NCBI GenBank assembly: GCA_973895155.1
Contig: OZ316897.1
Location: forward strand, 13,949,375-14,013,374
Direction: 5' to 3'
Length of the DNA stretch: 64,000 bases
Source: Marsupella aquatica
Lineage: Eukaryota > Plantae > Marchantiophyta
Below, piece by piece: positions 9,923-29,021 of this stretch; position 1 is the stretch's first letter; every line of letters starts with the position of its first letter. Position numbers and translations under genes: made by a program. The notes below the pieces were generated by a model. It saw only the letters and a list, made by a program, of their open reading frames with translations, did not search any database and was not told the origin of the DNA.

Positions 9923-11276
9923 ATGAACCTGGTCAGTTCATCCACATTTGAATCTAACTCCAAACCAATGTCACACCATTCTAAGTAGGGTTAGAGTGTA
10001 TTGTACTATCTAGATCTGTATGCTTGGTATGTGTGCTATATGAGCCGATAAGGTTTTGTTAGGTTTGTGTGAGAGGATAATTCTCTCTTGTGAGGCATCA
10101 AAAGGTTATCTTTCAATGCTGAGCCTTGGAGAGAGGAGCTCGTGTTGTGGCTATGGTGGTAGAGCTCCTTCTATGTGACATGGATTCCTTGAGTGTGTTG
10201 GCTTGACATATGTGTGTGATCGGATCGAACACAATCGAGTGCGTATTGTTGATGTCGATTGTGGTTCGATTCTATTGAGATTACATCAAAAGATCTGAGG
10301 AGCTTCAAACTCTGTTGTGCGGACAGAAGCTTGGTTTGATTTTGATTTTGTCATTGACAGTTTGTGGTAGCTCGAATTGATCGGATTTGTGTTTGACACG
10401 GATTCGTGGTATCTCAGATTGTTGGTTCTATTGATTCAGTACACCGTTGCTATTCAATCTGGTTCTGGCCGAGCTTGAACGTTGTTGGATCTGAATCTGG
10501 TCAACTGACAATTCAAAGGTTGTTGATTGAGTTGGAGTGGGAACAACAATGCTTTTTATGAAGGAAAGTGATGACTGAAGGTTGCTATTTTGATGGGGAG
10601 AATTGTTGTTTCTATCGCGCTATTGTTTTGTGGACAAATCTATTGGAATGTTGCTGAGTTCACAACAACATCAATTTGAGTGCTCACAATTGCGTTTTAT
10701 TGTGAAAGAACGCTTGTGAATGTCCCAAAACCGTGCGTGGCAATTTTGTGGAGGTCGAGAGTGATCAACATTGCTGTTTTTGTGAAGGAAACCACAACAG
10801 ATGTTGCCAAATTTTGTAGCGACAATGCAAGGGGTTGCTGCGTAGTCGATGCTGCATTTTTATGAAGAAAAATGACTGGTGATAGTCGCGTATATTGCCA
10901 AATCAATGTGTGGTCGGTTGTATCTGTGGATCCAACAGGGCAGGTCATCGACACAGCCGGTTGCTGAGTTTTTTTGTGAAGGAAATGGAGGACCAAAACC
11001 GGAAATGTTGTAGAAATTGGATTGAGTCTCGATGTAGCGAGCGTGGCTCACTCTTTGGCCTTGGTGTTTAGAGGCTTCGAGGCAACTCATGGTAACTCGG
11101 GACGAGGGGCATGAGGGCGGAGTAGGAGCGGGCGGACCAACAATTACGTGAGGAGAATTGCAAGTGCTATCATTTTGGAGTGGCAGATTGGTGCATAATG
11201 ACAAGTGAGAGGTCACCCATCCCAAAGCTATTCCTCCCCTCACGCGCTTAACTAGCTAGTTCTTATGTGGTGCATT

Positions 11277-13853
11277 TGTCACCTGCTTATCAAACAATTT
11301 ACACGATAATTACGTATTTCCTCCTACTAAAATTGTTTGTTATCGTATGACGGGAACGTGGAGGGACGCTATTCGGATTGTATTGCATGTAGGATGAGTA
11401 TGTTTATTTCCGCTCCCGGAAATGTAATTTTTGATCAAGTCTACGGACTAGCCTCTGCTTTTGATCAAGTCCCATGGACTACACCACACACCCTCCTGCT
11501 GGTCGCTAGTGGGGTGCTGTCACCACCCCCCCTACTCACATGGATGACCAATCCGTGCAAGGAGTCCTTAGACACTTCTTGGGGGAAGAACACAATCGTG
11601 AAACAGAAAAGATAACGCCACACCAAAACTTCAGTAATCAAACCAAATCCATATCTTTTGGTAACAAATCGTAACACATTGCAAGGACAACCCGGCCTCC
11701 TGCCTCACTGGGGCAAGTGCTACACCTCTACCTCACTACTTTGGCTTGATTAATTCCCTCTTTTGGCTATGAGATAACTTCCCTAAACCAACACTAGACT
11801 GGGTTCCCCCCTCTACTCACTACGGGGCTCCCCCCTAAATACCAAAAAAAACACCAAAGCACCCCTCATGGGGTCACAACGATGGCGGTTACCCTAGCAA
11901 CGTCGCTTAAAACCTCATTCAAGAAATCCCTAACCTAAGTCATGCGGCACATACATGCCACCTAAAACCCTAATCTATTACGGAACCGACGGTGCCTTTG
12001 ACGGTGCCAACTACCACTCCGCTAAACAAGGACTCACTTGAGTCCACCACCTCCTATCCTATCTATCTACCCTGCCTATCAGCCTCAATCTTCCTGATCG
12101 CTGTCGTGCGTATACACATCGCTACACAATATACATCGCTTGTCACATACATCCAAACATAGTCACACTGCCACATCACAAACACAAGAGAATGGAATAC
12201 AAGTGGAACTCATGTCCACACATGTCCAAAACCCACAATAATCTCCATACAATCGGCACAACGATCCCGGTCAATAATACCCCATCGATCCCGCACCGAT
12301 CCGATTACACACGTATGTCAAGCCAACGCACCTTGCACTACTCAAGGAATCCACGTTACACAAGCAGAGCTCACAGCCACCATAGCCACTCAAGCTCCTC
12401 TCTCTCCAAGGCTCAACATTGAAAGATGACCTTTCAATGCCTCACAAGTGAGAAGTACCCTCTCACACAAACCTGATGGAACCTTATCGGCTCATATAGC
12501 ACACATACCAAACATACGGATCTAGATAGTACGATACACTCTAACACTACCTAGAATGGTGTGACATCGCCACCACCGGTCTATCGTAAAAGGAGGAGGC
12601 CCCTACAATTGTCGAAACTAAAATTTCCTCAGAATTCACTTCTGAAAACATATTTGGGGAGCCCTCCTCTTTCTGATCACGGCTCCGTAAACGGTGCACA
12701 AAACGGAGGTCAAACGGCCAAGATATGATCATTTAAGTTTTTACGGGGCACCGTCTCCCTTCGTTTCGTCCGTACAACACCAGGGGGCCCCGGCTTTGCA
12801 AAACATAGATCACGGTTCCCCGTATGTGCTGCTACCTTCTCCTTCCCTTGTAAAGCCGGGACCTCCTGCAATACGAACGTCCGTACGGCCTCAAAACCCC
12901 CTATTCTCAAAAAATGCAATCTGTTGTATCTCCCCCGCCTTAGCTCCATTTCGGCCGTGTCCATCGTTGGATTCAGCTTGGCGAGCTCTTTCCAACAAGC
13001 CCGTAGACTCCTAATTTTGAGATGGCCAAAAAATTGATGTTTGTACAACCAAGGTCCATACGCACGTTGAAAGCAAGCACAATAGGGAAAGGGTTTAGGG
13101 TTTAGGAATGGGTGGGAATCTCACAAGTGAGAATAGAGAAAAAGGGGAGGAAGAAAGTGTGGGGGCCCCTTCTACGGATGTGTTCTTCTACGGATGTGTT
13201 CTTCTACGGATGTGTTCTTCTACAGAGTGCCCCTTCTACTGAGTGGGGAAGGAAAATTGTGGAAAACTATGGATTGAGGAAGGGAAATTGTGGGAGTCCC
13301 TTCCTTCTAAGGGCCCTCCCACCATCACTACTCCAAGATTGTCTAGTTTGTTGTTTTACGGGCTTTGCTCAAGGTCCCTCGAGATGTCACTGTTTGATAT
13401 AGACCTAAAATCAACTAGAAAACCTCAGTTTTGCATGGGGCTCATTGAGGGCTTCAAAACAAATCCAAAAATTATCATGTTTGGAATAGTACTAGCGCAA
13501 CAACGTCTATTTTAAGTTTCAATGTTTTCTATATTTTGGTCATTCTTCCCGTTTTGCGCCTTACGTGGAGCCTTCGACCAGCCCCACCCCTCCAAGATGC
13601 TCACACCTTGGCCTCCAAGTCCTTGGGCTGCCTTTTGGCCTCCTTGTACCCCCTCAATGGCTCCATTGTGATCCATCTCCACCCAACACCCCTCTCAACT
13701 CCGGCCTCCGTGTGTCGCATCAATTTATTAGAACTAACAAAAATTAAAAAAATTAAAAATCCAAACACTTTTGCTACACCTACTTGTCTTTATACTTATA
13801 TATGCAATTATAAGTTATTGCCAAGTTACTATCGGGTTGGGGCCCGTGTCACA
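11277..13853. mobile_element. Solo LTR (family L), second copy, with a nested insertion and an internal deletion
   Basis: TGTCACC...TGTCACA termini, perfect 5-bp TSD GCATT (11272-11276 and 13854-13858); lacks about 430 bp present at ~8146-8574 of copy 1. Confidence 0.92.
12102..12566 (-). mobile_element. Stand-alone B-A terminal-repeat unit (465 bp) of the split-LTR gypsy family
   Basis: Reverse complement reads TGTCACACCATTCTAGG...(B)...GAGATTA|TTGTGGGTTTTGG...(A)...GCACGACA, the same layout as 26685-27151. 4-bp TSD TCGC (12098-12101, 12567-12570); the empty site CTGATCGCCACC is visible in LTR copy 1 at ~8657. Confidence 0.9.
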
Positions 13854-14503: not shown

Positions 14504-17441
14504 CATAAGGTGAGATATCTTTGATTGGATAATAGTGGTGAATACAGTTCCAGGGAATTTGGAACGTATTGTAAGGAGCAGGGGATTACCCGCCATCTCA
14601 TAACAAGTTATACTCCTCAGCAGAATGGTGTTTTTGAGAGACTCAACCAAACACTATTGGACCGCTCGAGGAGTATGTTGAGTCAATCATGCTTACCACA
14701 TGAGTTTTTGGCTGCAGCTGTCAACACTGCAGCTTATTTGGTAAATTTTTCTCCATCCAGTTCTATTGGATTCAAGATGCCATTTGAAATGAGGTACGAG
14801 CGTCCAGCAGATTATTCACATCTGAGGATTTTTGGATGTGATGTTTATGTGCTTACACCTTCCTAGCTTCGATCCAAGCTGGAGTCCAAGTCGAAGAAGT
14901 GCATTTTCCTTGGCTATCAAAAATGTGTGAAGGGTTATAGGTTATGGAATCCAGTAACCTGTAAACTAATTGTCAGTAGAGATGTGTCCTTTAATGAATC
15001 CAAATCATCAAAGGAGGGGGAGAGTTCTCAGGACTCCCATACTGACAAGGAAAAATCTCCCATCCCGGACCAGGTTGAGGGGGAGATTAGCTATGATGTT
15101 GTTCATGACAAGAGAGATGGAGAAGCTCCGGGCATGGAGCTGGTTCCTGGGATGGAACAAGAGGAGCAGATTGTTGCTGGGGTACCTCAAATTCAGCCAG
15201 CAGCAGTAGCAGATCAACCTGAGTCATCTACTAGAAGAACTTCTAGTCGTTCTACTAGAGCTCCTACCAGGTATGGTCAATGGGCAGACTCATCTAAGCT
15301 AGATGATATTGACATTGCACGTGATGAAGATGATATGGCTTTGATCTTAGAAGAAGGAGAGTCTTCTTCGTACGGTGAGGCTTGTGCTTCAGAGCAAAAG
15401 CATGAGTGGAATACAACAATGTAGAGGGAGTTGCAATCTTTGAGTGACAACAAGACATGGGAGCTGGTGGAGCTTCCAAAAGGTCAGCAAGTGGTGGACA
15501 ACAAGTGGATTTACAAGTTGAAGGACAGTCCTTCAGAGGGTGGAGATAAGATCTACAAGGCACAGCTTGTTGCCAAGGGATTCACTTAGGAGAAAGGAGT
15601 GGATTATAATGAGGTCTTTTCATCGGTGACTAAGTATTTCACAATTTGGATCTTATGTCAGCTTGTTGTGTTTTTTTAATCTGGTGATGGATCAGATGGA
15701 TGTTGTTACTGCTTGTCTCTATGGCAACTTGGAAGATATGACCTTCATGAGACAACCGCTAGGCCTTAGTATGCAGATTGCTCAAGTCCTTGTATGGATT
15801 GAAGGAATCTCCCAGACAGTGGAACAAGCGGTTTGATGATTTCATGTTTGCTCAAGGTTTTACAAGGATCAGGTGTGTATACGAAATCAGTCAAGAATGA
15901 TGTATTTGGTTTCATCATTATGGTGATCTATATGGATGACATGCTGATTGTGGCTAAAGATCAATTTGAGGTTGACAGTCTCAAGGCAAAATTGAGTGTT
16001 GAATTCAGGATAAAGGATCTTGGTAAGGCCAAGAGAATCTTAGGGATGGAGATTTTTAGGAACTTTGGTACTGGACAGTTGTGCTTGAGTCAAGGCCAGT
16101 ATGCAAGGAAAGTACTTGCACGATTCAACATGGAGAACTGTAAGCCAGTGAGTATTACTTTAGCTTCACATTTCAAGTTATCATCGGCTTTCTCTCCTAC
16201 GGATGCTCTAGAGAAAGGTCTGATGGCTAAGATTCGTTATGAGAAGGCAGTAGGCAGTCTGATGTATTTGATGACTTGTACTAGGCCTGACTTGGCCCTA
16301 ACGATGGGCAAGGTTAGCAGATTCATGTCAAATCCAGGGAAGATACACTAGGAAGCTGTGAAGTGGATTCTTGATCAGATATCTAAAGGGAACACAGGAC
16401 TATGGATTACTGTTTGATAATAGATCAAATAGAAGGTTAGTTGGCTATGTAGATTCTAACTATGGAGGCTGTCTGGACACAAGGAGGTCTACAACTGGGT
16501 TTGTTTTTACTCTTGGAGGAGGATGTATCAGTTGGAAATCTACCTTGCAAAAGTGTATATCTCAGTCTACTACAGAAGCAGAGTATGTTGCAACAGCAGA
16601 AGCAACAAAGGAAGCAATTTGGTTGGACAAGTTGATAGCGGAGATGGGTTTAGAGCATGGCAAAATGACTCTAAACTGTGATAGTCAGAGTGCTCTTCAC
16701 TTGGCTGCTAACCAGGTGATGGATAGTAGGGTGAAGCACATTGATATCAAGTACCATTTTATCAGGCAAACAATGTCTGATAAAACTTTTGAGCTAGTCA
16801 AGATTGATGGAAAGCTCAATCCCGCTGATGTCTTTACCAAAGTGATTCCTTTGGAGAATTTCTCAAGACACGGTGCTACTTTGCAGGTTTTGCAGTTGTA
16901 GTACAAGTAGAGTTATGTAGCAATGTGTGACTATTTGTATATGGATTACTCATTCCTGTTTGGCTACGGCTTAGTTTTAGTTAACCCTTGTGGTTTTTAG
17001 GGGGAGACTTGGTTTGGTGATTGTCTAGAACTTCCCGCAGAGGATTCCATATGGTAGCATTTAGTCCAGTCCCCAAGATAAGAATCAAGGGGGAGTTTGT
17101 TAGATATTGCTCTAGTCTTGTGACTCATGAGCTAACCACAGTTAGTCCAACTCGGGTTAGGACTTAGCTATTGTTAGCGATAGTGCTGTTGTGTATTAAG
17201 CCAGGGCTGATGCCAGACCCTGGTGGAACTTAGGCTCATTGTTACGGAGCTAGTTGAGAGATAGGGAGAGCTTGTGTTGTGGATGCTTGGTATGGCCGGT
17301 CGGCCTAGAGTGCAGTAAAGCTCTTGTGTGTTCCCATGGACGTCGCCTCATATGGAGGTGAACCACGTATCTCTCTATGTCGACTATTGTGCGTTGGATG
17401 GTTTATAGGCTTGCCGTTGCAAATGTCGTCTATGCTCAACA
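14504..17441 (+). mobile_element. 5'-truncated, decayed Ty1/copia element (integrase core, RT, RNase H, PPT, 3' LTR)
   Basis: LDNSGEY...TPQQNGVFER..LRIFGC (integrase); YKAQLVAKGF, SLYGLKESPRQW, IYMDDMLI (RT); GYVDSNYGGCLDTRRSTTG, STTEAEY, KHIDIKYHFIR (RNase H). INT-RT-RH order; stops and frameshifts. Confidence 0.95.
17098..17441 (+). repeat. 3' LTR of the copia element (344 bp)
   Basis: Preceded by PPT AAGGGGGAG (17087-17095); TGTTAG...TCAACA termini; no 5' partner in the window. Confidence 0.7.
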
Positions 17442-17579
17442 GACCTGTATCTATTGACTTTGCCCATCCCTAGGGCAATATCTAGCTATTGCATGCAGAT
17501 CATAAGAAACATGAGAGGGACTACTCCTTGCTCATCACTCAAGGATTTTTGACATCAATCCCTCGCCACAACATCAACT

Positions 17580-17757
17580 GGACACTATGGAGAGGATAAT
17601 TAACTTACAATGAGATCATGCCAATTGGTACTTCTAGCCTTGCAACCCTTCATGTTGAAGCTTGCAAGCTTCTTACTCACATAATTGCCCTGCGTTAACC
17701 TTTCCAAGTCCCTATGCATCTCCGTACCCAAAATATTATTGGTTGCGCCTAGATCTT
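17580..17757 (-). mobile_element. Ty1/copia RT fragment (downstream half), target of the gypsy insertion
   Basis: Minus strand reads DLGATNNILGTEMHRDL..LTQGNYVSKKLASFNMKGCK; joins 27156-27340 in frame as KMKDLG once the gypsy and one TCTT copy are removed. Confidence 0.8.
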
Positions 17758-18086
17758 TGTCACACCATTCTAGGTAGTGTTAGAGTGTATCGTACTATCT
17801 AGATCCGTATGTTTGGTATGTGTGCTATATGAGCCAGTAAGGTTATGTTAGGTTTGTGTGAGAGGGTAGTTCTCTCTTGTGAGGCATTGAAAGGTTATCT
17901 TTCAATGTTGAGCCTTGGAGAGAGGAGCTTATGTGGTAGCTATGATGGCTGAGAGCTCTCTCTCTATGTAGCGTGAATTCCTTGAGTGCAAGGTGCGTTG
18001 GCTCGACATACGTGTGTGATCGGATTGGATGGGATTGAGTGCGTATTATTATTGTCGATTGTTGTTTGGATTCTACTAGGATTACA
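17758..18086 (+). repeat. 5' terminal repeat, B segment (distal part of the LTR)
   Basis: Direct repeat of 26685-27014; starts TGTCACACC, ends GGATTACA; contains hairpin CATTGAAAG-GTTAT-CTTTCAATG. Confidence 0.9.
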
Positions 18087-18095
18087 TTGAAAGAT
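18087..18095 (+). promoter_or_regulatory. Putative self-priming primer-binding site
   Basis: ACATTGAAAGAT (18084-18095) is the exact reverse complement of ATCTTTCAATGT (17897-17908) inside the LTR; there is no TGG-type tRNA PBS. Confidence 0.65.
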
Positions 18096-18829
18096 CAGGC
18101 ACCAAATTCTGCTATGCGGATTGTGCAAACAAAAGTTTGTTTCATGTTGATTGAGTTGGCAACGGTTTATGGAAATCATTTGAATTTGTTGTGTGGATCC
18201 GTGGTAGCTTGGATCGCATTGAGTAGATCGTTAGTCTTTCAATCTGCTACAATCTGTATTTTGTTGTTGGGTTGGCAAATGCGGGTTGTTTTGAGAAGAG
18301 AGATCGCAGATCATTGGAAATCATAGATTGCTCAATGTTTTGCCAGATTTTTAAGGAGATAGTGTGTCGATCTGGGACCAGTGCTGCCATTTTGACGGAC
18401 AATATGTTGTTATCCGCGTTTTTATGAAGAAAATTTCTGCTGCTGAGTGCGAATGTTGATAGATCGGGCCCACCTGAACCGTATTCGACTCCAAAATTGC
18501 AAGATCTATTTTTGTTGCGGACCGATTGCTGCATAGTCAACGCCGGATCAACTATGTGCCGGATCTATGATTTTTGTGAAGGAAAAGAGGACCAAACGTT
18601 GTAGTTTTTGCCGTCAACAGTAGGCCGATTGAACCCCGCGTTTGTGCGCTAAAAGTTGCAGTTTTGTTGACTCGACGATACCTACATCGTCGTCATGATC
18701 TTCAGTGATTTTGATGAGGACTTTGTGACCAGTTCTCCTCGTCATCAGGTGATTGCACCTTTGTTGTGGGATGTGGAAGAGATGTACGAGGCTACAAAGA
18801 GCCAACGACGATACTCTGGTGCAATTGGC

Positions 18830-19810
18830 ACAATTGATCTGGATGACTTTATCTAGGAGTTTGATACGTGATGCGATATGCAGACATTGCGTAACACCAC
18901 GTTATTTACCCTTTTCATGGCATGGAAGGGATTATTTTAGCATTTGGAGGGGTCACCCATGGATGACTACCATGAGTTTCAGAAGGCTCATTTGGTTGAA
19001 ATTGAAGCATGGAGACAACATTGGTCGCCTAATTACGTGTCCATCACCTATGGCACTAGTGCGGCTACCTAACCCATTGCCACAACTGCTACTTCTTCTA
19101 GCACTACTAGCCAGAGTGGCACACCATCCACTAGTAGCACTCTAGCAGCATTCATCGCTACTCCTACTGGTGCGATTCTGGCAGGGGCTGGAGCTGCGCC
19201 AACATTTAACCCTGTGGTGGATTTCTTTGAGGTATTGAAGCAGAACTATCAGGGTGTGAGAATATATAAGCTGAAGGGTCTCCAGGAGTTTGAGCCCACG
19301 ACTGGAGAGAGTCTACGTGAGGCATACACTCGTATGCGCAAATTGATCACTATCACCAAGAGAGTGACAGAGACTCAGGCAGTCCAATTTTGGTATGCAA
19401 TTCTGGACAGAGAATTGCGACGCAAAGTGAGAGATGTCACTCTACTTAGGGATGCAGATCCCACGTTGGCAATTGTTTTCACACTTTCTAAGCGCATTGA
19501 GTTCAATATGGTGAATGAGAAAGTGGTGACTTCCGGATTTTCCAAGCCAGGAAGCATCAAAGGCTGCATCTACACCCACATCACAGCCTACTACACGTAA
19601 GAGCCAAAGGAAGAAGCCCACTACACAGAAATCTACCAGTTAGAGACCTGTGTCTTCCTATGCTGGGCAACAATCAGGATGTTGGACCTGTGGTGGGGAT
19701 AATGCACAACAATATTGCCCTAATCATAGAGGGCCATAAGGGGCCTCAACACTTGATTAACAAAAGTGTGACCATTGTGGAGCTCCTAGACACACCAAGG
19801 ATAGGTGTTT
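18830..19810 (+). pseudogene. Gag with CCHC zinc knuckle
   Basis: LKQNYQGVRIYKLKGLQEF...GESLREAYTRMRKL (retrotransposon gag-like); CDHCGAPRHTKDRC = CX2CX4HX4C at 19767-19808; a degenerate knuckle CWTCGG at 19680. Confidence 0.8.
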
Positions 19811-20699
19811 CTCACTCCATCATGAGTTACGGAGAGGAGGACAACGCATACATGATTAGGAAAGAGGAGGTAGAGGTGGTGATCGTGGCCGAGGTATGCC
19901 ACATGCAGGAAGACAGGGGAGGTGATGTTGCTCCTACTGTGATCACATATCCTAAGGATGCTAAGATTTCTCAATTGGAGCAACAACTAGCTGCTATGAC
20001 TAGTTCTCAAGTGAGGTTTGCTTATGGTGATGGGGCTTCTACATCTCATGGAGCTTCCACATCCTATGGGATTGATGGAGCCCTTGCCACCATGGGATTC
20101 ATGTGTGGCACTGCGGATATTGATGCATCACCAGCTTTGACATGTGGGGCAGCCAAAGCTCTTGAGCCTCGAGGAGCAGTAGTGGAGCTAGATCCACAGA
20201 GGGGGGATGCACGTTGTCAGACAAAGCTTCCTCAATCTTTTACATTGTCAAAGATAGTTTAGATTGTCTCCCGAACTGCCTCTATGAACCCGATTCGGAC
20301 AAACCGTGGTGTGGGTAAGTTGGCAAAATCATAGGATGTTGCAACAGGGATGACAGGTACCTTGTTGGGGGTGGCTACCACCATAGTGCGCACCCCACTA
20401 TCTTCAACAACATATATGCTGACATTGGAGGTTGGTCTAGCTAATGTGTTTAGATTAGCAGCCAAATTATGCGAGGATACTCCAGTTTTGGCTTTTCATG
20501 CAAAGGCAACATGCAGTTATGGAGCAGCGGAGTTGACACCACCTACTGCTATTAGTCAGACATGGCATGCAATAGTGGAAAAGTTGATGGATTTGTTAGC
20601 ACGCCCTGCATTTGAGAGGATTAGGTTTAAACCTAGCGTTGTGTCATTGGATAATTGATATCTTTTGATTAGTTGGGCCTACTAGAGCAGTATACCAGC

Positions 20700-21330
20700 C
20701 AAAGAGAGTGTTACTGGATACTGGTGCCCAGCCCTTAATGTTGGGTAAGTCTGTAGTACGAGGATTGGGATTGCATCCAGATGATCTCGAGGAATGTCCC
20801 TTTCCTATCCAGACTTCATTGGGGGGACCTACACCCACACAACCCGGGGTCCTCACTTCTTTTCTTCCTACCCATCACGCGCGAATAAGTATAGGGTTTT
20901 TTTATTGGGTTTAGTGAAATACTTTTAAATTTTTGTTGAAGAACATTAGGGTTATTTTAATCCAATTTTGAGAATTATAATAATCATAGGGTTTTTTAAA
21001 ATCAAATATGGGAATATTATTGGAATATTCCATTAAGTTAGGGGTAAAAAAATTCCTAAAAAAAACTTTATTGACTTAACTTTTAGGGTGTTTATTCTCC
21101 CAAAACTTCGAGCGTGATATGGGACACCCCTTGGATTGGGGCCCCCGAGCCACACAACACATCACCAGACAACCACTTGACTTGCGAATTCAAGAGGGTC
21201 ATGCAAAGGATAGCTCTCACATACAAACGTGAGCTATTTTGACTAAGGCAGAGTCCTATGATGTGTTGGTGGGATGTACGATGCTTTATCCCATGGGATT
21301 CATCCTTGATTTTTGGGATGAATCAGTTTT
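20700..21330 (+). pseudogene. Aspartic protease, split by a MITE
   Basis: VLLDTGAQ (DTG at 20717-20725), IQTSLGG flap, and YDVLVG after the insertion. Confidence 0.85.
20843..21149. mobile_element. MITE (307 bp), 8-bp TSD, hAT-like
   Basis: TSD CCACACAA (20835-20842, 21150-21157); imperfect TIRs CCCGGGGTCCTCACT / ATTGGGGCCCCCGAG; AT-rich interior. Confidence 0.88.
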
Positions 21331-21735
21331 CTATCAACCTGCTTGGCATCTGGAGATGCTAGATTGAGTAGATTGCCAGTGCGATTTAGTGGACCTATGG
21401 GGGGCCCTAAACCCGCACCATTATCTTTGGCAATATTCATTGGTATGATCACTGATCCTGATGATTTGATTGAGGGCAACGCACATGCAGCAGATATTCC
21501 AGCAGTGGAGCAGTCACATGAGGAGAAGGTCATGTGTGGGTTACCTATTGGTAGTGTTGTGCCACTAGTGTGGGGCACTAGCCAGGCCTTGCCACAAATA
21601 GCAGCACGATTGGTACATGATGCATGGCGTCATGCTTTTACACCATAGCTAGGAGCATAGTAGTCTCCTACAGGTGGGCCAGTGACTCTTTCACCATTGG
21701 ATGCCACTCCCATTGCATGACAATATCCACCATAG

Positions 21736-22690
21736 GGTATTTGTTTGTTGGATTTATTTGCTGGGATTAGCACTAGATTGGCTGTTGTTTTTCAGGTAGG
21801 AATTCCAATGCATCGTTACTTGTATGTGGAGACAGATGAGACAACATGAAGAGTCTCATTGCACCATGTGGCTATGTTGGTGGATTGTTATCCACAGTTA
21901 TTGCCAGTGGATGTTGTTTGTGACTATCAACATGCACTACTTATTGATATTTTACTGCTGCCCAGGGTGGATCATTTGGATTGCGTTGGCCCTATTGATT
22001 TGGTGATTGCTAGTTGACCATGTTAGGGCCAATCTAGAGCTGGAGTTGGACATGTACTTCATGATTTGCATTGTTTTGGGAGATATTACGGGTGTTACGT
22101 CATCTCTAGTTGCATCAGACACAGTCTCCAGCCTACATTTTGGAGTATGTGTCACTCTCGGGTGATCATCATCAACGGATTGTTGCTAGTGTTCATCAGG
22201 TGAGGTCTTGGACCTGCTGTGTTATTGGATGTTGTACGTGTGGATTCTTGTGCACATTGTCCACGTTTGTGGTGGACTAATTTGTTACCAGGTGAGGTGT
22301 TGAAGTGAGCATTTAAAAACATTCCTCGCTTGCCAGCCTTGGTAGTAGATGATATTTTGGATCCAGGGTGTTGTTCACAGGGTGTGACCTAGCCTAACAG
22401 ATCTCCATTGGCCATAGTCAATGTGGTTGGGCGTCCACATTGTGCATTACCCACTTTTGTGAGTCACTCTACTTCATATGCTTTCAGTGCATATGGCCCT
22501 GGACTTGTGTGGGATACAGCTCTACGATAGTTAGTAGAGCCCACTGTTGATGAGAGACAACGAGCCATGGGGTTCTCCACAGGTACAACTGTTGTTGCAT
22601 CTGTGTCAAAGAGTTCATGCCGCCAGGTCCTTGGCCAAGCCATGGATTTGAATTGTTTGACTTGGATTGTCAGCTTGGGAGTAGCAGAGC
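21736..22690 (+). pseudogene. DNMT3-like C5-cytosine DNA methyltransferase domain inside the gypsy pol
   Basis: Motif I LLDLFAGIST (21745) followed by GIPMHRYLYVETDE; motif IV GPIDLVIAS*PC*G (PC at 22018-22023); motif VI YILEYV (ENV position, ~22140); motif VIII LLD..RVDSCAHCPRLWWTNL (~22225-22284); IX-X ERQRAMGF...RQVLGQAMDLNCL (~22550-22660). Order and spacing match the DNMT3 catalytic domain. Confidence 0.85.
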
Positions 22691-23049
22691 AGTTTTGGAT
22701 GCGCTTTGCTGGTGTTACAGATCGTCCATTGGTAGCTTGCGGCCTATTGAGACAGTAGTGGCCACAGCTAGGAGCGAGCAGACAGTCCATGGACCTATGG
22801 CAGGATTGGCCAAGGCTGGACAGATTGTTGAGCAAGAAGGGACTGCTCAAACTAGCAATCATCGGCTATCTTCTTCTACCCTACAAAAAGATATTAGGGA
22901 TTTGGTGGAGAGTTGGGAGCCATAGATTGGTCCTAAGTTAACAAGGGAGGAGAGACGTCGCATGCATCGATTCCTAAAGGAGTTACTAGAATTTTTTTGC
23001 ATTCAACATGAAGGATTGGGGACATTGAAGGGCCCTGACATTCATTTTG

Positions 23050-23720
23050 AATTGGCTAGTGATGCCCCAATCTTTCTAGATCATACTGTTACAATGACAT
23101 GGAGAGAGCTTTGATTCGGAGCAGAACTCAGGATTTGTTGGAGGCTGGTTTGGTGGAGATCTCATACGAGGAGTATGCATCTGCCATAGTGATGCCAGCC
23201 AAGAAGGATGTGCATGGTAATTACACGGATAGGCACATGTGTGGTGATTATTGACCTATTAATCGTCAAACAAAATCTGATTGATATGCTATGCCCACAC
23301 TTGAGAAGATCTTTGATGCTATGGGGCATGCAAATTGAAGGTTTTTAGTTCATTGGATCTGAGGGCAGGGTACCATCAGCTTCCAATCAGACATTCTGAC
23401 AGGTCCAAAACAACATTATGGGGAATTGATTTGCATGGCAAAGATCGTTTATATCAGTGGTTGTTCTTACCATTTGGGTTGAAGAATGCACCAGCTGAAT
23501 TCCAGAGAGTCATGGATCAAATTCTTGCAGGTTTGGATTTTGTTAGATGTTACATTGATGATATTTTGGTCTATTCTTCCACTGTGGAAGAACATCAATA
23601 GCACTTGCAGATTGTGTTGGAGAGATTGAGAGAACATGGGTTGAAACTCCATCCTAGCAAGTGTAAGTTTGTCCAAGACCAGATTGAATATTTGGGCCAC
23701 ACTATCTACCCAAGGGGATT
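23050..23720 (+). pseudogene. Gypsy reverse transcriptase
   Basis: SLDLRAGYHQ, LPFGLKNAPAEFQRVM, YIDD (23551-23562), KCKF...YLGH. Confidence 0.95.
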
Positions 23721-23969
23721 GGGTGTGCAACAGACCAAGGTGGAGGCCATAACACAGATTCCTTGTCCTACTGATATGAGTAGAGTTTGTGCATTCTTGG
23801 GATTGGCGAGCTACTACAGGAGGTATGTTAAAGGATTTAGTCAACTTGCTAAACCTTTGACCATACTCACTAAGTTGGATCAAGAGTGGATTTGGGGTGA
23901 TGACCAGGAGCATGCCTTTCAGGAGTTGAAAGAAAGATTGGCATTATCCCCTATTTTGAGAAGACCCAT

Positions 23970-24650
23970 TTCAAGGAGACCATTTCAGCTACACACCTTG
24001 GGGGTTTCACTTCCACAAAATGACATATCACGTGCGACGAAGGATAGGGTCATTTTATTGGTTCTAAGGGAAGACTTAAGAATTTTTGTAGAAGAACAAC
24101 AGGGTCTTTTTAATTCAATTTTGAGACTTATAAGAATATTAGGGTCTTCTAATCCAATTTTTGGAATATTCCAAGAATATTCCAACTTTATAGAGGTTAA
24201 AAAATGAATTTGTTTCTTACATTTTAGGTGGTCCGAGGCCTAAAAACGTCATAGGTGACGGGGAGGTCCCCATATAGTGAGACCCCCGAGCTACACACTG
24301 ATTGGAGTGGAGTAGGGCTTGGAGCAGTGCTAACTCAGAAGGATGATGAGGGGAATGAGTTTGTTGTGGCTTATGCCAGTAGATCAAACAATTCAGCAGA
24401 GGCTAATTATAGCTCTTATGAGGGAGAGTGTTTGGCTGCAGTGTGAACTGTTGCACACTTTCGTTGCTACTTGTTTGGTAACCCCTTCACCTTGGTCACT
24501 GATCATCGGTCTCTCAAGTGCTTAATGGAGTCTAACAAGCTTACAAAGAAGCTTGCACGATGGGCATTGTTGTTACAGGAGTATGATTTCCAGGTTGTGC
24601 ATATGCTTGGAAAAGTGAACTTGCATTGGATGCAGATGGATTGAGTCGCA
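23970..24650 (+). pseudogene. Gypsy RNase H, split by a MITE
   Basis: PFQLHT|[13 protein letters not shown]...[40 protein letters not shown]. Confidence 0.9.
23997..24290. mobile_element. MITE (294 bp), 8-bp TSD, same family as 20843
   Basis: TSD CTACACAC (23989-23996, 24291-24298); TIRs CTTGGGGGTTTCACT / AGTGAGACCCCCGAG; removing it restores LHTDW. Confidence 0.9.
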
Positions 24651-24795
24651 ATCCATGTACCAGTCAAGAGGATAAGACTAGAGCCAGATGGCATGATGAG
24701 TCAGATAAGGAGATGGTGCCAGGATGGCATGCATCTGTCTTCCTTTGTTGGGTTCCAGCATGCAATGGGTCTGTGAACTCTACTTCAATCATTGA

Positions 24796-24943
24796 ATGAA
24801 GTAGATGATGAGTCTACAGATATGGATGTTGGTGAGATTGTGGTTGGACAGCAAAATATTCACAACGATATGAAGTAGATGATGAGTCTACAGATATGGA
24901 TATTGGTGAGATTGTGGTTGGACAGCAGGATATTCACAACGAT
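24796..24943 (+). repeat. 74-bp tandem duplication within pol
   Basis: ATGAAGTAGATGATGAGTC...CACAACGAT occurs at 24796 and 24870. Confidence 0.85.
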
Positions 24944-25099
24944 GAGAGAGTGTTGGAATACCTAGCACTCATTCTATTGGTGGTAGTGTTGATGCCAAGG
25001 AGCGTGACAGGGTTTTGCAAAGAGCCAAGAGGTTTTGATGGGAAGGAAACCATCTTTTGAGAGTACTACGTGATGGTAAGGTATTGGTGGTACCAAAAC

Positions 25100-26170
25100 C
25101 ATCACAACGAGTACATTTGGTGCGACATGCGCACGAGGAGTTGGGTCACTTGGTGTGAAGCGCACTTACAGCTTGCTGCAGACACAATATTGGTGGCGTG
25201 GTATGCACACTCATATCCAACAACTGATAGCTAAGTGTGTGGTATATGATCGAGTGAGAGCATCCTTCAATGCTCCCACTCCCCAGTTGCATCCATTGCC
25301 GATCATGGGTTTGGGGTACAGATGGAGTTTGGACTTTGCTGGTCCATTGTACCTCTTACCCAATGACATAATTGATATGTTTTGGTTATGGTGGAACACT
25401 TCTCCAAATGGATTGAGCTAGTAGCGTTGCCAGATAAAGTTAGTGGAGGAGTTGCTGCCACATTTTTGGATTGTGTACTCAATCATTTTGGAGCACCAGC
25501 TGAGGTGTTGACTGATCAGGGAATTGAGTTTCGTGGAGAGTTTGAGAGTTTGTGCAAGCAAGCTCTGATTAATCATCATACTACTTCTTGTGACCATCCT
25601 GAGGCAGATGGATTGGCTGAGAGAATGATGCAAACTGTGAAGAGAGGATTGCGCAAGTATGGCTTGCAAGTTGGTCATCTGGGAATTGAGATCTCTAATT
25701 ACCTTGGTTAGCTATGGGCTACTGTTCAGTTGGCAAACATCACTTGCATCCTTCTCACCTTATTTCTTGCTCTATGGTAGTGAGCCAAATTTGCCAGCAA
25801 CTATTCGTCGTGATACTGCATCGGTTGTGAACTTGGAAAATCCTGATGTTTGGATCAAGGTTTGTTTAGAGAGGGCAAATATTTTTGAGAGAGTCATGCC
25901 CATGGCCTTTGACAGCCTTGCCATTGCTCAACATCGTGATACTTTGCGGTATGCCACTATTTGTGGAGGAGGTTATCGTGCAAGAATTTGATGATTTCAT
26001 CCTGGTGATTATGCTTATTTGCAGCAGACAGCACCAACTACACTTGATGTGACTGCGGGTTGGACCATTTTATGTGTGCGTGAAGTGTTGCCTTCTGGTG
26101 TACTGATGTTGGAAGGGCTTGATGGTATGATTTGGAAGGATCATATATGTGCACAATTGTGCACCATGTC
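25100..26170 (+). pseudogene. DDE integrase
   Basis: HAHEELGH and a partly decayed HHCC zinc domain, WSLDFAGP, VEHFSKW, VLTDQG.EF, HPEADGLAER, FSPYFLLYG. Confidence 0.93.
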
Positions 26171-26229
26171 ATCTTCCAAACATTGATGGTACGGTGGATC
26201 CAAGCTTAGCACATGTTCGTGCTAGTTTG

Positions 26230-26373
26230 AAGTGTATGTTGTGTGGATCTACTCAGGGAACAACTACTATGTTAGTTTGTGATAAGTGTTCTAGAGGATG
26301 ACATATGTCGTGTTTGACACCACCATTGCAGGTGATTCCTAGTGGATTATGGTTGTGTCCTCAGTGTCGGTGA
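26230..26373 (+). pseudogene. C-terminal PHD finger
   Basis: KCMLCGSTQGTTTMLVCDKCSRG*HMSCLTPPLQVIPSGLWLCPQCR* = C4HC3 with the canonical CLxPPL...W.C..C signature. Confidence 0.92.
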
Positions 26374-26536
26374 ATCCGACTAGTTATCAATTGTGTTCTC
26401 TTGGAAGATATGGATTACAAGTAGGTGATCGATGGGGCTCACCTGCACCCAGCCTCCTGATCTTCACACCTAAAAGGTGTATATCAACATTGTATAACTC
26501 ATGGCTAGCTAGAGTTAGGGGACCTTAATCCCAACT

Positions 26537-26546
26537 AGGGGGGCGA
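26537..26546 (+). other. Polypurine tract
   Basis: AGGGGGGCGA immediately before T-TGTGGG, the start of segment A. Confidence 0.75.
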
Positions 26547-26547
26547 T

Positions 26548-27151
26548 TGTGGGTTTTGGACATGTGTGGACATGAGTTCCGCTTGTATTCCATTCTCTTG
26601 TGTTTGTGATGTGGCAGTGTGACTATGTTTGGATATAGTGACAAGCGATGTATGTTGTGTAGCGATGTGTATGCGCATGACAGCTGTCACACCATTCTAG
26701 GTAGTGTTAGAGTGTATCGTACAATCTAGATCTGTATGTTTGGTATGTGTGCTATATGAGCCGATAAGGTTCCATTAGGTTTGTGTGAGAGGGTAGTTCT
26801 CTCTTGTGAGGCATTGAAAGGTTATCTTTCAATGCTGAGCCTTGGAGAGGGGAGCTTATGTGGTGGCTATGGTGGTTGAGAGCTCTCTCTATGTAGCGTG
26901 GATTCCTTGAGTGCAAGGTGCGTTGGCTCGACCTACGTGTGTGATCGGATCGGATCGGACAGGATTGAGTGCGTATTGTTGGCGTCGATCATTGTTCAGA
27001 TTCTATTGGGATTATTATGGGTTTTGAACATGTGTGGACATGAGTTTTGCTTGTATTCCATTCTCTTGTGTTTGTGATGTGGCAGTGTGACTATGTCTAG
27101 ATGTATGTGACAAACGATGTATGTTGTGTAGCGATGTGTATACGCACGACA
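26548..27151 (+). repeat. 3' terminal repeat block A1 (26548-26682) - GC - B2 (26685-27014) - A2 (27016-27151)
   Basis: A1 and A2 are ~135-bp direct repeats; B2 repeats 17758-18084; the A1/B2 junction is the palindrome TGACAGCTGTCA. Confidence 0.92.
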
Positions 27152-27155
27152 TCTT

Positions 27156-27340
27156 TCATCTTAAACTTAGAGCTGTCAAGCTTTGCCTTGAGTTTGTCCA
27201 CCTCAAACCTATCCTTAGCTACAATAAGAATGTCATCAACATATTGTACCAAAATAATGAAACCAAACACATAATTATTCACATGCTTTAAATAATCACA
27301 TGGATCAAAATCACTTTGCTTGAAGTCTTGTGACAACATG
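27156..27340 (-). mobile_element. Ty1/copia RT fragment (upstream half)
   Basis: FKQSDFDPCDY...IILVQYVDDILIVAKDRFEVDKLKAKL..FKMKD. Confidence 0.85.
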
Positions 27341-29021
27341 CACAGTTACTAGAAAATTATATCATGTGCTATACTCAACGTTGCAAAGCCCTAAAAGCGG
27401 ACGGTATGCTCTACATCGCTACAAAATTTGACAACCATTCATTGGTTCTGGCGTCCACATGGGTCTAGGCGCTCGTTGGGGTTGGCGACGCAAAACCATT
27501 GTCTATTTTTTTTACGTTCTGGAGAGAATTGTAACATCAATGTCATCTTTTGCCACCCAACGCCCTCACCAATCCCAACACCCTCGCCTTAGTGCCCTTG
27601 GTGCCCAAACGCCTCCACGGAACTCTTTGAGCAAGTAACTTGATGCCCCTTGCACCCCCGACGGCCACTCCCATATGAAGCCACACTTGCTCCATAACAC
27701 GACCATTGTTCAATGACCCTCACTATCTGCACAAGCAACCAAGCACTCCGGTAAGTAACCCAAAAGGATCTAGATCTCCAAAGTCTAGCATCCTAACTCA
27801 AGCTTAACAAACATTGGTAAGTAGATCAGTGATAGGGGCAAGTGAACTTGGAACTCAACCTCCCGCTCAACCTCCATGCCTACTTGGTCTTGCCTCCCCA
27901 ATGCAAGCTCCCTTGGAAAACTAAATGCGGCTTGGCTACTATTTTGCAGGATTTGGCAAGCGGACGAGATAGTCCCCGCAAACCCCAAGAATCCATGGCA
28001 CCCCAAGACCCAATTGAGCTGAGGAGGATGTAGTACTCCTTGAGAGATTTTCAATGCACCCAAGAAGTACTCCAATGGACTTTTCGTTGGGATGTTATCG
28101 CCGTTTATGTTGCTCGTCCTTGGCCCAAAGGGAGACACCATACCCCTCATATATGCTTCTTGAGAACTGCCACCCCCGGATAGACTTTGGTCCCCATATT
28201 TTGGCTCCCCACCTGGACCCCAACCTACACGTCTAGGTACACCACCAACTGGCTATGCCCATAACATTTTAGTTACGCATCCGTAGGCGGAGCCTTAGCC
28301 CGTTGTGATTGGGCCGACTCAGTGCTCATGCCTAGGCCCTCGGAACCCATCATCGCTCGGGGTCCCCGAATGGCCAAACCTGGGCCAGGCCGTATCTCGT
28401 GCCCCAAACGTTGGCTGTGCATGAAGTAAATTCCATTAGCCTTGGGCTCAAAAGAAGCTCTCATTCAAGCTCTTAGAAGTCAAAGTCCGTTCGGGGGTCC
28501 GAACGGTCGACCTTGAGTCCGACAATTTTTCATGACCCGACTAGCCCCCAACTAGTCTAAGTCCTTGGTGTGCTTCATAAGTTTAGCGCCCTGCCTTTGT
28601 CAACGGTGCAATGCCTCATTGCCCACAAATCTCTCCATGTTAAGTCTCGGATGACCATTCCATGACCATTTCCCCGGATGACCATTCCATGACCATTCCG
28701 GGCTTGGACCATAGAGGAACTCATAGAGTAACCCATAGAGGTTTGAAAGAACGAAGGATCGATGACGGAGAAGGATGGAATCATAGGCGCGCTAAATCTA
28801 CAGTTATTAAGCTCAACGCGAACTCACCTTTTGTAGAAAAGGCGGCTTGAAAGAGGAGCACTGAGCCACTCGGTGTGTATCTGCTGATCTCCATCTCTGT
28901 TGTTCAGCCGTTGCCTGCGAGGTTTGAGATTCTCGTCCCGCGTTTGTTCCGTTTGTAAGCGAGTAAATTACCTCAGTACACACGCTGCGCAGGAGAATTT
29001 GGACCAATCGGCCAAGCAGCT

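Follow-up and report, generated by a model that had tools for sequence, protein, structure and literature searches.

Structure of the element and its insertion site

The window analysed here is a stretch of 64,000 nucleotides from Marsupella aquatica (Marchantiophyta; contig OZ316897.1), and its central feature is a decayed retrotransposon at 17758–27151 that combines the domains of a Ty3/gypsy element with split long terminal repeats (LTRs). Two repeated blocks, A and B, are distributed over this copy in the order B1, 8.4 kb of internal sequence, A1, GC, B2 and A2. The two copies of B share 90% identity (332 nt) and the two copies of A ~91%, and the element opens with TGTCAC and closes with CGACA (Table 1). 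The joint between A1 and B2 is a 12-bp perfect palindrome centred on the GC at 26683–26684. An earlier note, made from the letters of this stretch, had proposed the same layout, and the repeats were found where it had placed them.

The element is bordered by a TCTT duplication, which was examined by removing the insertion from its host sequence. When the element is excised together with one TCTT, a minus-strand host frame of 115 codons (63 + 52) reopens across the junction; with both copies of TCTT retained at most 7 codons are open, and with neither copy at most 1. The repaired host reading passes through QYVDDILIV and KFKMK and continues into DLGATNNILGTEMHRD, that is, DLGATNNILG. The TCTT-bounded insertion of the earlier note is thus borne out by restoration of the host frame on precise removal. 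The host itself (16800–17757 and 27152–28100, minus strand) has the QYVDDILIV motif and a weak RVT_2 match in the right flank (E 8.4e-4, 19.4 bits, under the Pfam curated cut-off), which point to a copia-type element, and the insertion would therefore be nested. Contigs from public runs of two studies agree perfectly with the window at both boundaries (17600–17780/83 and 27123–27300), reaching fewer than 31 letters into the element.

Coding content

The internal part of the window copy contains many stops and frameshifts, but its domains can still be followed in the order protease, DNMT-like stretch, reverse transcriptase, RNase H, integrase and plant homeodomain (PHD) finger. The integrase, which the earlier note had described as being of the DDE type, is matched by both Integrase_H2C2 (E 3.3e-9) and the rve core (E 1.6e-10). 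By comparison, a tyrosine recombinase (Phage_integrase, PF00589) was matched neither in the plus frames at E≤0.001 nor in the minus frames at E≤0.01.

The DNMT-like stretch spans ~1 kb between protease and reverse transcriptase and was read in frame with X at the stops. Of its listed matches in the Protein Data Bank (PDB), 29 of 35 are DNMT3A, DNMT3B or DNMT3C, with a best E of 2.9e-4, and Pfam assigned no family to the decayed window stretch, even at E≤1; the DNMT3 assignment in the window is therefore one made from the PDB matches and from relatives rather than from Pfam. Among 15 protein matches to the stretch, 13 come from Marchantia polymorpha at 41–49% identity, one from Sphagnum fallax and one from a metagenome. 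PF00145 is present in 6 of the 10 relative proteins scanned, where it accompanies reverse transcriptase, RNase H or rve, and the related metagenome locus L046 bears protease, reverse transcriptase, RNase H, H2C2 and rve together with DNA_methylase and PHD. A wider search returned 830 relatives of the stretch among 1.84 billion representatives, many of them long polyproteins.

The window copy also contains two extra segments of ~300–318 bp, at 20835–21149 and ~23987–24288, that share a 180-bp core at 76% identity. Contigs of all four public runs bypass both of them (joints 20834>21150 and 23986>24289), and contig depth within them is the maximum for the element. Both are probably insertions of one short, non-autonomous and very abundant repeat; one of the two splits the RNase H domain. 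A 74-bp tandem duplication with 96% identity lies between RNase H and integrase (24796–24943). Differences between the window copy (17600–27300) and the family contigs are mainly transitions (X7: A>G 194, T>C 154, G>A 104 and C>T 82, with transversions at 5–26 each).

Table 1. Positions, in the window, of the insertion, its repeats and domains, and two related copies
Feature	Position	Strand	Details
Third copy, 5′ end	9969–10323	+	Unrelated flank, then TGTCAC...GAGATTA (B), then CATCAAAAGAT; element homology ends at 10323
Solo B-A unit, same LTR family	12102–12566	-	TGTCAC...CGACA; GCGA at 12567–12570 and 12098–12101; B/A joint GAGATTA/TTGTGGG
TCTT target duplication, left copy	17754–17757	+	Removal test restores host frame
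B1	17758–18084	+	Starts TGTCAC, ends GGATTA
Hairpin CATTGAAAG-gttat-CTTTCAATG within B1	~17886–17908	+	
Predicted primer binding site CATTGAAAGAT	18085–18095	+	Perfect complement of ATCTTTCAATG within B1
Aspartic protease domain	20696–20860	+	Asp_protease_2, E 1.6e-5
DNMT3-like C5 cytosine methyltransferase domain	21724–22761	+	One frame, 13 stops in the 535-codon stretch read
Reverse transcriptase RVT_1	23329–23706	+	E 7.1e-31
RNase H	24282–24584	+	E 3.4e-32
Integrase, H2C2 zinc finger and DDE core (rve)	25149–25588	+	Broken by frameshift
C-terminal PHD finger	26233–26367	+	E 2.3e-11
Polypurine tract AGGGGGGCGA	26537–26546	+	Same tract in 8/9 internal-to-A joints compared
A1, 5′ part of U3	26547–26682	+	Starts TTGTGGG, ends ATGACA
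Palindrome TGACA-GC-TGTCA, predicted att site	26678–26689	.	A1/B2 joint
B2	26685–27014	+	Repeat comparison with B1
A2	27015–27151	+	B2/A2 joint GGATTA/TTATGGG; ends CGACA
TCTT target duplication, right copy	27152–27155	+	Adjoins A2; removal test

The split layout is a trait of the family

Two further places in the window, a solo B-A unit and the 5′ end of a third copy, carry the same repeats (Table 1), and metagenome contigs scanned with an alignment of DNMT-bearing polyproteins yielded another 59 loci, 24 of which bear A or B segments belonging to a second LTR family, one that can hardly be aligned with that of the window. Two of these loci are complete copies with the order B, internal sequence, A, GC, B, A, flanked by the duplications AAGG (L046) and AATC (L058). 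In two others the duplication is not visible: L053 retains A-B-A, with its 5′ end lying beyond the contig, and L004 retains B-internal-A-B and is cut by the limit of the locus. L029 (2507–11240) has both ends present and consists of B-internal-A only, flanked by TGTT, and L032 is rearranged, bounded by B and A and flanked by CACA. The 20 nt with which B begins, used as an exact pattern, had no match in the metagenome contigs scanned.

Loci with common flanks were counted once (L029 with L030, L043 with L046, L032 with L033), and the count of left ends excludes L044, where B is partial, as well as L023 and L027, in which B is truncated at position 83. This leaves 15 distinct left ends, 12 in the loci and three in the window, all of which begin at the TGTCA of B and none of which has A upstream. 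Similarly, all 10 distinct right ends (eight in the loci and two in the window) finish at the ACA of A. Neither copies of the form A-B...A-B nor right ends in which B meets the flank were seen among these 15 left and 10 right ends. Perfect 4-bp duplications flank 6/6 of the insertions with both ends visible (TCTT, GCGA, AAGG, AATC, TGTT and CACA); the chance of such a duplication is 1/256 per insertion, and the layout is beyond chance. The B-internal-A-GC-B-A layout is thus a family trait that occurs in two LTR families. This outcome agrees with what the earlier note had predicted, namely B-internal-A-B-A copies (complete in the window, L046 and L058) and few or no A-B-internal-A-B copies, but the mirror form B-A-B-internal-A, which it had thought possible, is seen at none of the 15 left ends.

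Four of the eight right ends in the loci (L029, L011, L020 and L045) pass from internal sequence through A directly into the flank and lack B2-A2. In the four public runs, 17–34 contigs per run track A as far as 26682 (...GACA) and then enter unrelated sequence (agreement 0.36–0.39), 10 contigs of run X6 diverge conversely, before 26685, and in three runs 11–24 contigs place the end of B (...GATT) ahead of the start of A. The family is abundant, with a summed contig depth of 10^4–10^5 compared with ~20–90 for single-copy contigs. At 18248–18571 the depth is 35–300, as opposed to 10^4–10^5 elsewhere in the element, such that this part of the leader is nearly copy-specific.

Replication landmarks and the two repeat joints

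A purine-rich tract adjoins A at the end of the internal sequence: the polypurine tract (PPT), as AGGGGGGCGA or AGGGGGGCAA, is found in 8/9 of the joints compared, the exception being L045, which has a deletion there. The conserved tract before A can be written (A)GGGGGGCGA and includes a run of six G. At the other end of the internal sequence, in 9 of the 14 left ends compared, the sequence 0–1 nt past B is a perfect 9–16-nt complement of a site ~140–185 nt into B, which forms the 3′ arm of the hairpin. This predicted primer binding site (PBS) and its complement covary between the LTR families, being CATTGAAAGAT and ATCTTTCAATG in the window and CTCAAAGAACTATGTT and AACATAGTTCTTTGAG in L046 and L036, and a TGG-type PBS start, as would be expected for a tRNA primer, occurs at 0/14 left ends. 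From the complementarity of the PBS to B, we infer that the element primes its own reverse transcription, as in Tf1.

Judged by the PPT and PBS landmarks, the LTR of reverse transcription is A+GC+B, in accordance with the earlier note, since the PPT lies directly before A and the PBS-like sequence directly after B. B1 would then comprise part of the unique 3′ region (U3), followed by the repeat region (R) and the unique 5′ region (U5). On this assignment the final base of B is the end of U5, and U3 begins with the first base past GCGA. The B/A joint is the predicted end of U5 abutting the start of U3, exactly so in the solo unit of the window (GATTA/TTGTGGG) and in L058 (TTTTCA/GTTGTGG), and off by one base in L046, L053 and the full copy of the window; the end-to-end LTR-LTR join that had been suspected at B2/A2 is accordingly found. 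In L032 the B/A joint has ~16 extra nt, of which the first nine are identical to the PBS (CTCAAAGAA) and the last bases resemble a PPT. We place little weight on this joint because the locus is otherwise rearranged: at 15170–15946, one fragment of B and one stretch of internal sequence are inverted.

The palindrome of the A/B joint, GACAGCTGTCA, is intact at 3/5 such joints (window, L046 and L004), while L053 and L058 read GACAATTGTCA and GACAATTATCA, respectively, deviations that consist of transitions only. The central GC is either kept or altered by transition at the internal A/B joints and is absent from every integrated end. The change of the palindrome centre from AGCT to AATT in L053 and L058 matches the expectation for deamination of methylated C in a CHG context. 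In addition, two stretches are conserved across the two otherwise unalignable LTR families, namely the last ~25 nt of A (GTAGCGATGTGTAT.CGCA.GACA; window 26660–26682, L046 10325–10347) and 35 nt that precede the PPT; both are candidate recognition sequences for integrase and reverse transcriptase.

Proposed integration through the internal palindrome

The inserted ends of the family correspond to the two halves of the internal palindrome, as is evident from their TG...CA termini and the 4-bp duplications, and the earlier note's placement of the breakpoint in this palindrome stands. Since the B/A joint is the predicted end of U5 abutting the start of U3, we regard integration of the palindrome halves from a U5-U3-joined intermediate as the best reading. 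We therefore favour, with moderate confidence, a scheme in which the window copy is a decayed DNMT3-bearing Ty3/gypsy element whose DDE integrase cleaved each strand of the palindrome 3′ of CA within such an intermediate, either a 2-LTR circle or a run-on product, and inserted the CA-3′ ends so formed, duplicating 4 bp of the target.

In this scheme reverse transcription would first yield a linear A-B-internal-A-B copy, the ends of which would become joined, U5 to U3. The integrase would then open one palindrome 3′ of CA on both strands, the duplex GACAGCTGTC being the predicted substrate, and the CA-3′ ends, with 5′-GC overhangs, would be inserted into the target, with loss of the overhangs on repair. 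An RNA with R at both ends, and hence the ability to replicate again, would be retained by the B-internal-A-B-A product alone.

Several observations weigh against this scheme. A circle, a free cut end and integrase activity were not observed. All copies examined are riddled with stops, with a longest open frame of 957 codons across the 59 metagenome loci, and neither an intact copy nor an intact integrase was found. Self-priming, itself a prediction, would require a transcript start at that part of B which pairs with the PBS. The run-contig ends come from 24 of 490 loose-end rows listed, and rare canonical ends may exist in the host genome. The right ends that lack B2-A2 may be dead-on-arrival products or may have arisen by later deletion between A1 and A2; together with the solo B-A unit, they could have been formed by the same reaction as dead products or, equally, be the outcome of later A × A and B × B deletions. 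A circle with two identical palindromes should, moreover, also yield B-A-B-internal-A, which was seen at 0/15 left ends, whereas the B-to-A joint is borne by five right ends (L046, L058, L053, L032 and the full copy of the window), and the process therefore looks directional. Finally, the exactness of the B/A joint would be compatible with a templated origin as well.

The last two points bear on an alternative that retains the same att (attachment) site and integrase but credits reverse transcriptase, and not ligation into a circle, with making the U5-U3 joint. On this view, plus-strand synthesis that reached the 5′ end of its minus-strand template would continue on the 3′ end of that template and copy A as far as the palindrome. 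The resulting structure would, speculatively, be one-sided, with a discontinuity only in the LTR on the PBS side, and would yield B-internal-A-B-A alone, which would account both for the missing mirror form and for the exact B/A joint. The extra nucleotides at the joint of L032, PBS-like and then PPT-like, are also such as mis-processed cDNA ends might leave, but that locus is rearranged with inverted pieces and its joint could be an internal deletion. As the proposal is pure deduction and no intermediate of this kind was seen, we consider it rather unlikely.

Three other explanations appear highly improbable. The first is that a DIRS/Ngaro-like element was moved by a tyrosine recombinase, either its own or one supplied in trans. 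Split direct repeats are indeed the layout of PAT/Ngaro-type elements. For DIRS, the split layout is also given in PMC5890265. Site-specific recombination produces no target duplication, however, and the 4-bp duplications and TG...CA ends found here are typical of integration by a DDE enzyme. An rve integrase is present in these elements, with Phage_integrase unmatched in six frames.

The second, to which we likewise give very little credence, is that B-A is the true LTR and that PBS and PPT have been mis-assigned. A B-A unit likewise has TG...CA ends, and a solo B-A exists, but the PBS-like sequence directly follows B in 14/14 left ends and never A, the conserved G6 tract adjoins A in 8/9 joints, and a joint of A to the PBS was not found. 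Least credible of all is an ordinary A-B...A-B or B-A...B-A element that was rearranged after insertion, or an assembly artefact at the locus: the window copy is old (10% divergence between repeats) and lies within nested repeats, but the layout is seen three times in the window and again in independent metagenome contigs that belong to another LTR family, its B...A ends are flanked by duplications in 6/6 cases, precise removal restores the host frame, and the run contigs of two studies match both insertion boundaries without a difference.

Comparison with known retroelements

With Ty3/gypsy elements (Metaviridae), the family shares the order of protease, reverse transcriptase, RNase H and DDE integrase as well as TG...CA termini with a short (4–6 bp) duplication, seen in 6/6 insertions. 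It differs from them in that two like LTRs are missing, the 5′ end having just B and the 3′ end A-B-A, and in that a TGG PBS is found at 0/14 left ends. PAT, Ngaro and TOC1 have split direct repeats, a tyrosine recombinase and no target duplication. Like them, the present family has one repeat part at one end and three at the other, and its internal joint mirrors the joined termini; in contrast to elements of the DIRS order (DIRS, Ngaro, PAT and VIPER), a tyrosine recombinase is absent from the six frames and 4-bp duplications are present at 6/6 insertions.

Tf1 has ordinary identical LTRs. The present family resembles Tf1/sushi self-priming gypsies in that a TGG PBS is absent and the sequence after the repeat is complementary to a site in the left repeat, over 9–16 nt here. 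The principle of self-priming is stated in a passage of PMC5006619. A possible parallel, modular LTRs in Dictyostelium DGLT-A, was not borne out by passages of PMC6101501 and PMC5006619 and was dropped.

Cleavage of a palindromic LTR-LTR junction is described for the integrases of prototype foamy virus (PFV; PMC1180852) and human immunodeficiency virus 1 (HIV-1; PMC1905944), and reuse of 2-LTR circles is treated in PMC4372172. The PFV and HIV-1 reactions are comparable in that the palindrome on which the integrase of the present family would act is likewise internal and consists of two CA/TG half sites. The retroviral palindrome is the junction of two LTR ends, has a 4-bp centre and serves a side route, whereas that of the present family is located within U3, is centred on 2 bp and would provide the only route.

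The closest counterpart is KnitGypsy-Dnmt3 of Klebsormidium nitens, for which a DIRS-like repeat arrangement (A-coding-B-A-B) with gypsy domains is given in the legend of Fig. 4c of de Mendoza et al. 2018 (PMC5890265). Both have a gypsy pol with an internal DNMT3-type methyltransferase and, as far as that legend describes it, DIRS-like repeats. They differ in host, with Marchantia polymorpha (13/15) and Sphagnum fallax supplying the nearest named proteins for the present family, and the likeness is drawn from the description. The main text of PMC5890265 does not contain the terms 'target site', 'circular' or 'PHD', and an integration mechanism is not proposed there; a passage of a 2026 preprint mentions 'streptophytes (Gypsy-DNMT3)'. 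In the literature searched, we found no mechanism described for a DIRS-like layout on an integrase-bearing element. The earlier note's statement that no equivalent had been described hence does not hold for the layout, which has already been published for a DNMT3-bearing gypsy in a green alga, but apparently holds for the mechanism, which appears to be undescribed.

Implications for the DNMT3-gypsy family

According to the textbook account, LTR elements insert a linear cDNA by its tips, and circular forms count as dead ends. The 15 left ends, 10 right ends and six duplications from two LTR families point instead to DDE-type insertion with the halves of an internal palindrome as the reactive ends, and a prior U5-U3 joint is needed to produce the layout. 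We see an even chance that this reflects a gypsy lineage, spread through streptophytes, in which the att site has moved from the tips of the LTR to a palindrome inside U3 and which integrates only from U5-U3-joined DNA. If so, the LTR-LTR-junction intermediate would be an obligatory precursor of integration, and split direct repeats would stem from the logic of replication rather than from the kind of integration enzyme. On the practical side, LTR finders will mis-annotate the DNMT3-gypsy family, because such tools seek two like LTRs. If confirmed at the bench, the family would represent a natural case of integration via a joined-end intermediate, and would offer a tractable model for the origin of split direct repeats, which is still unsettled in DIRS/Ngaro.

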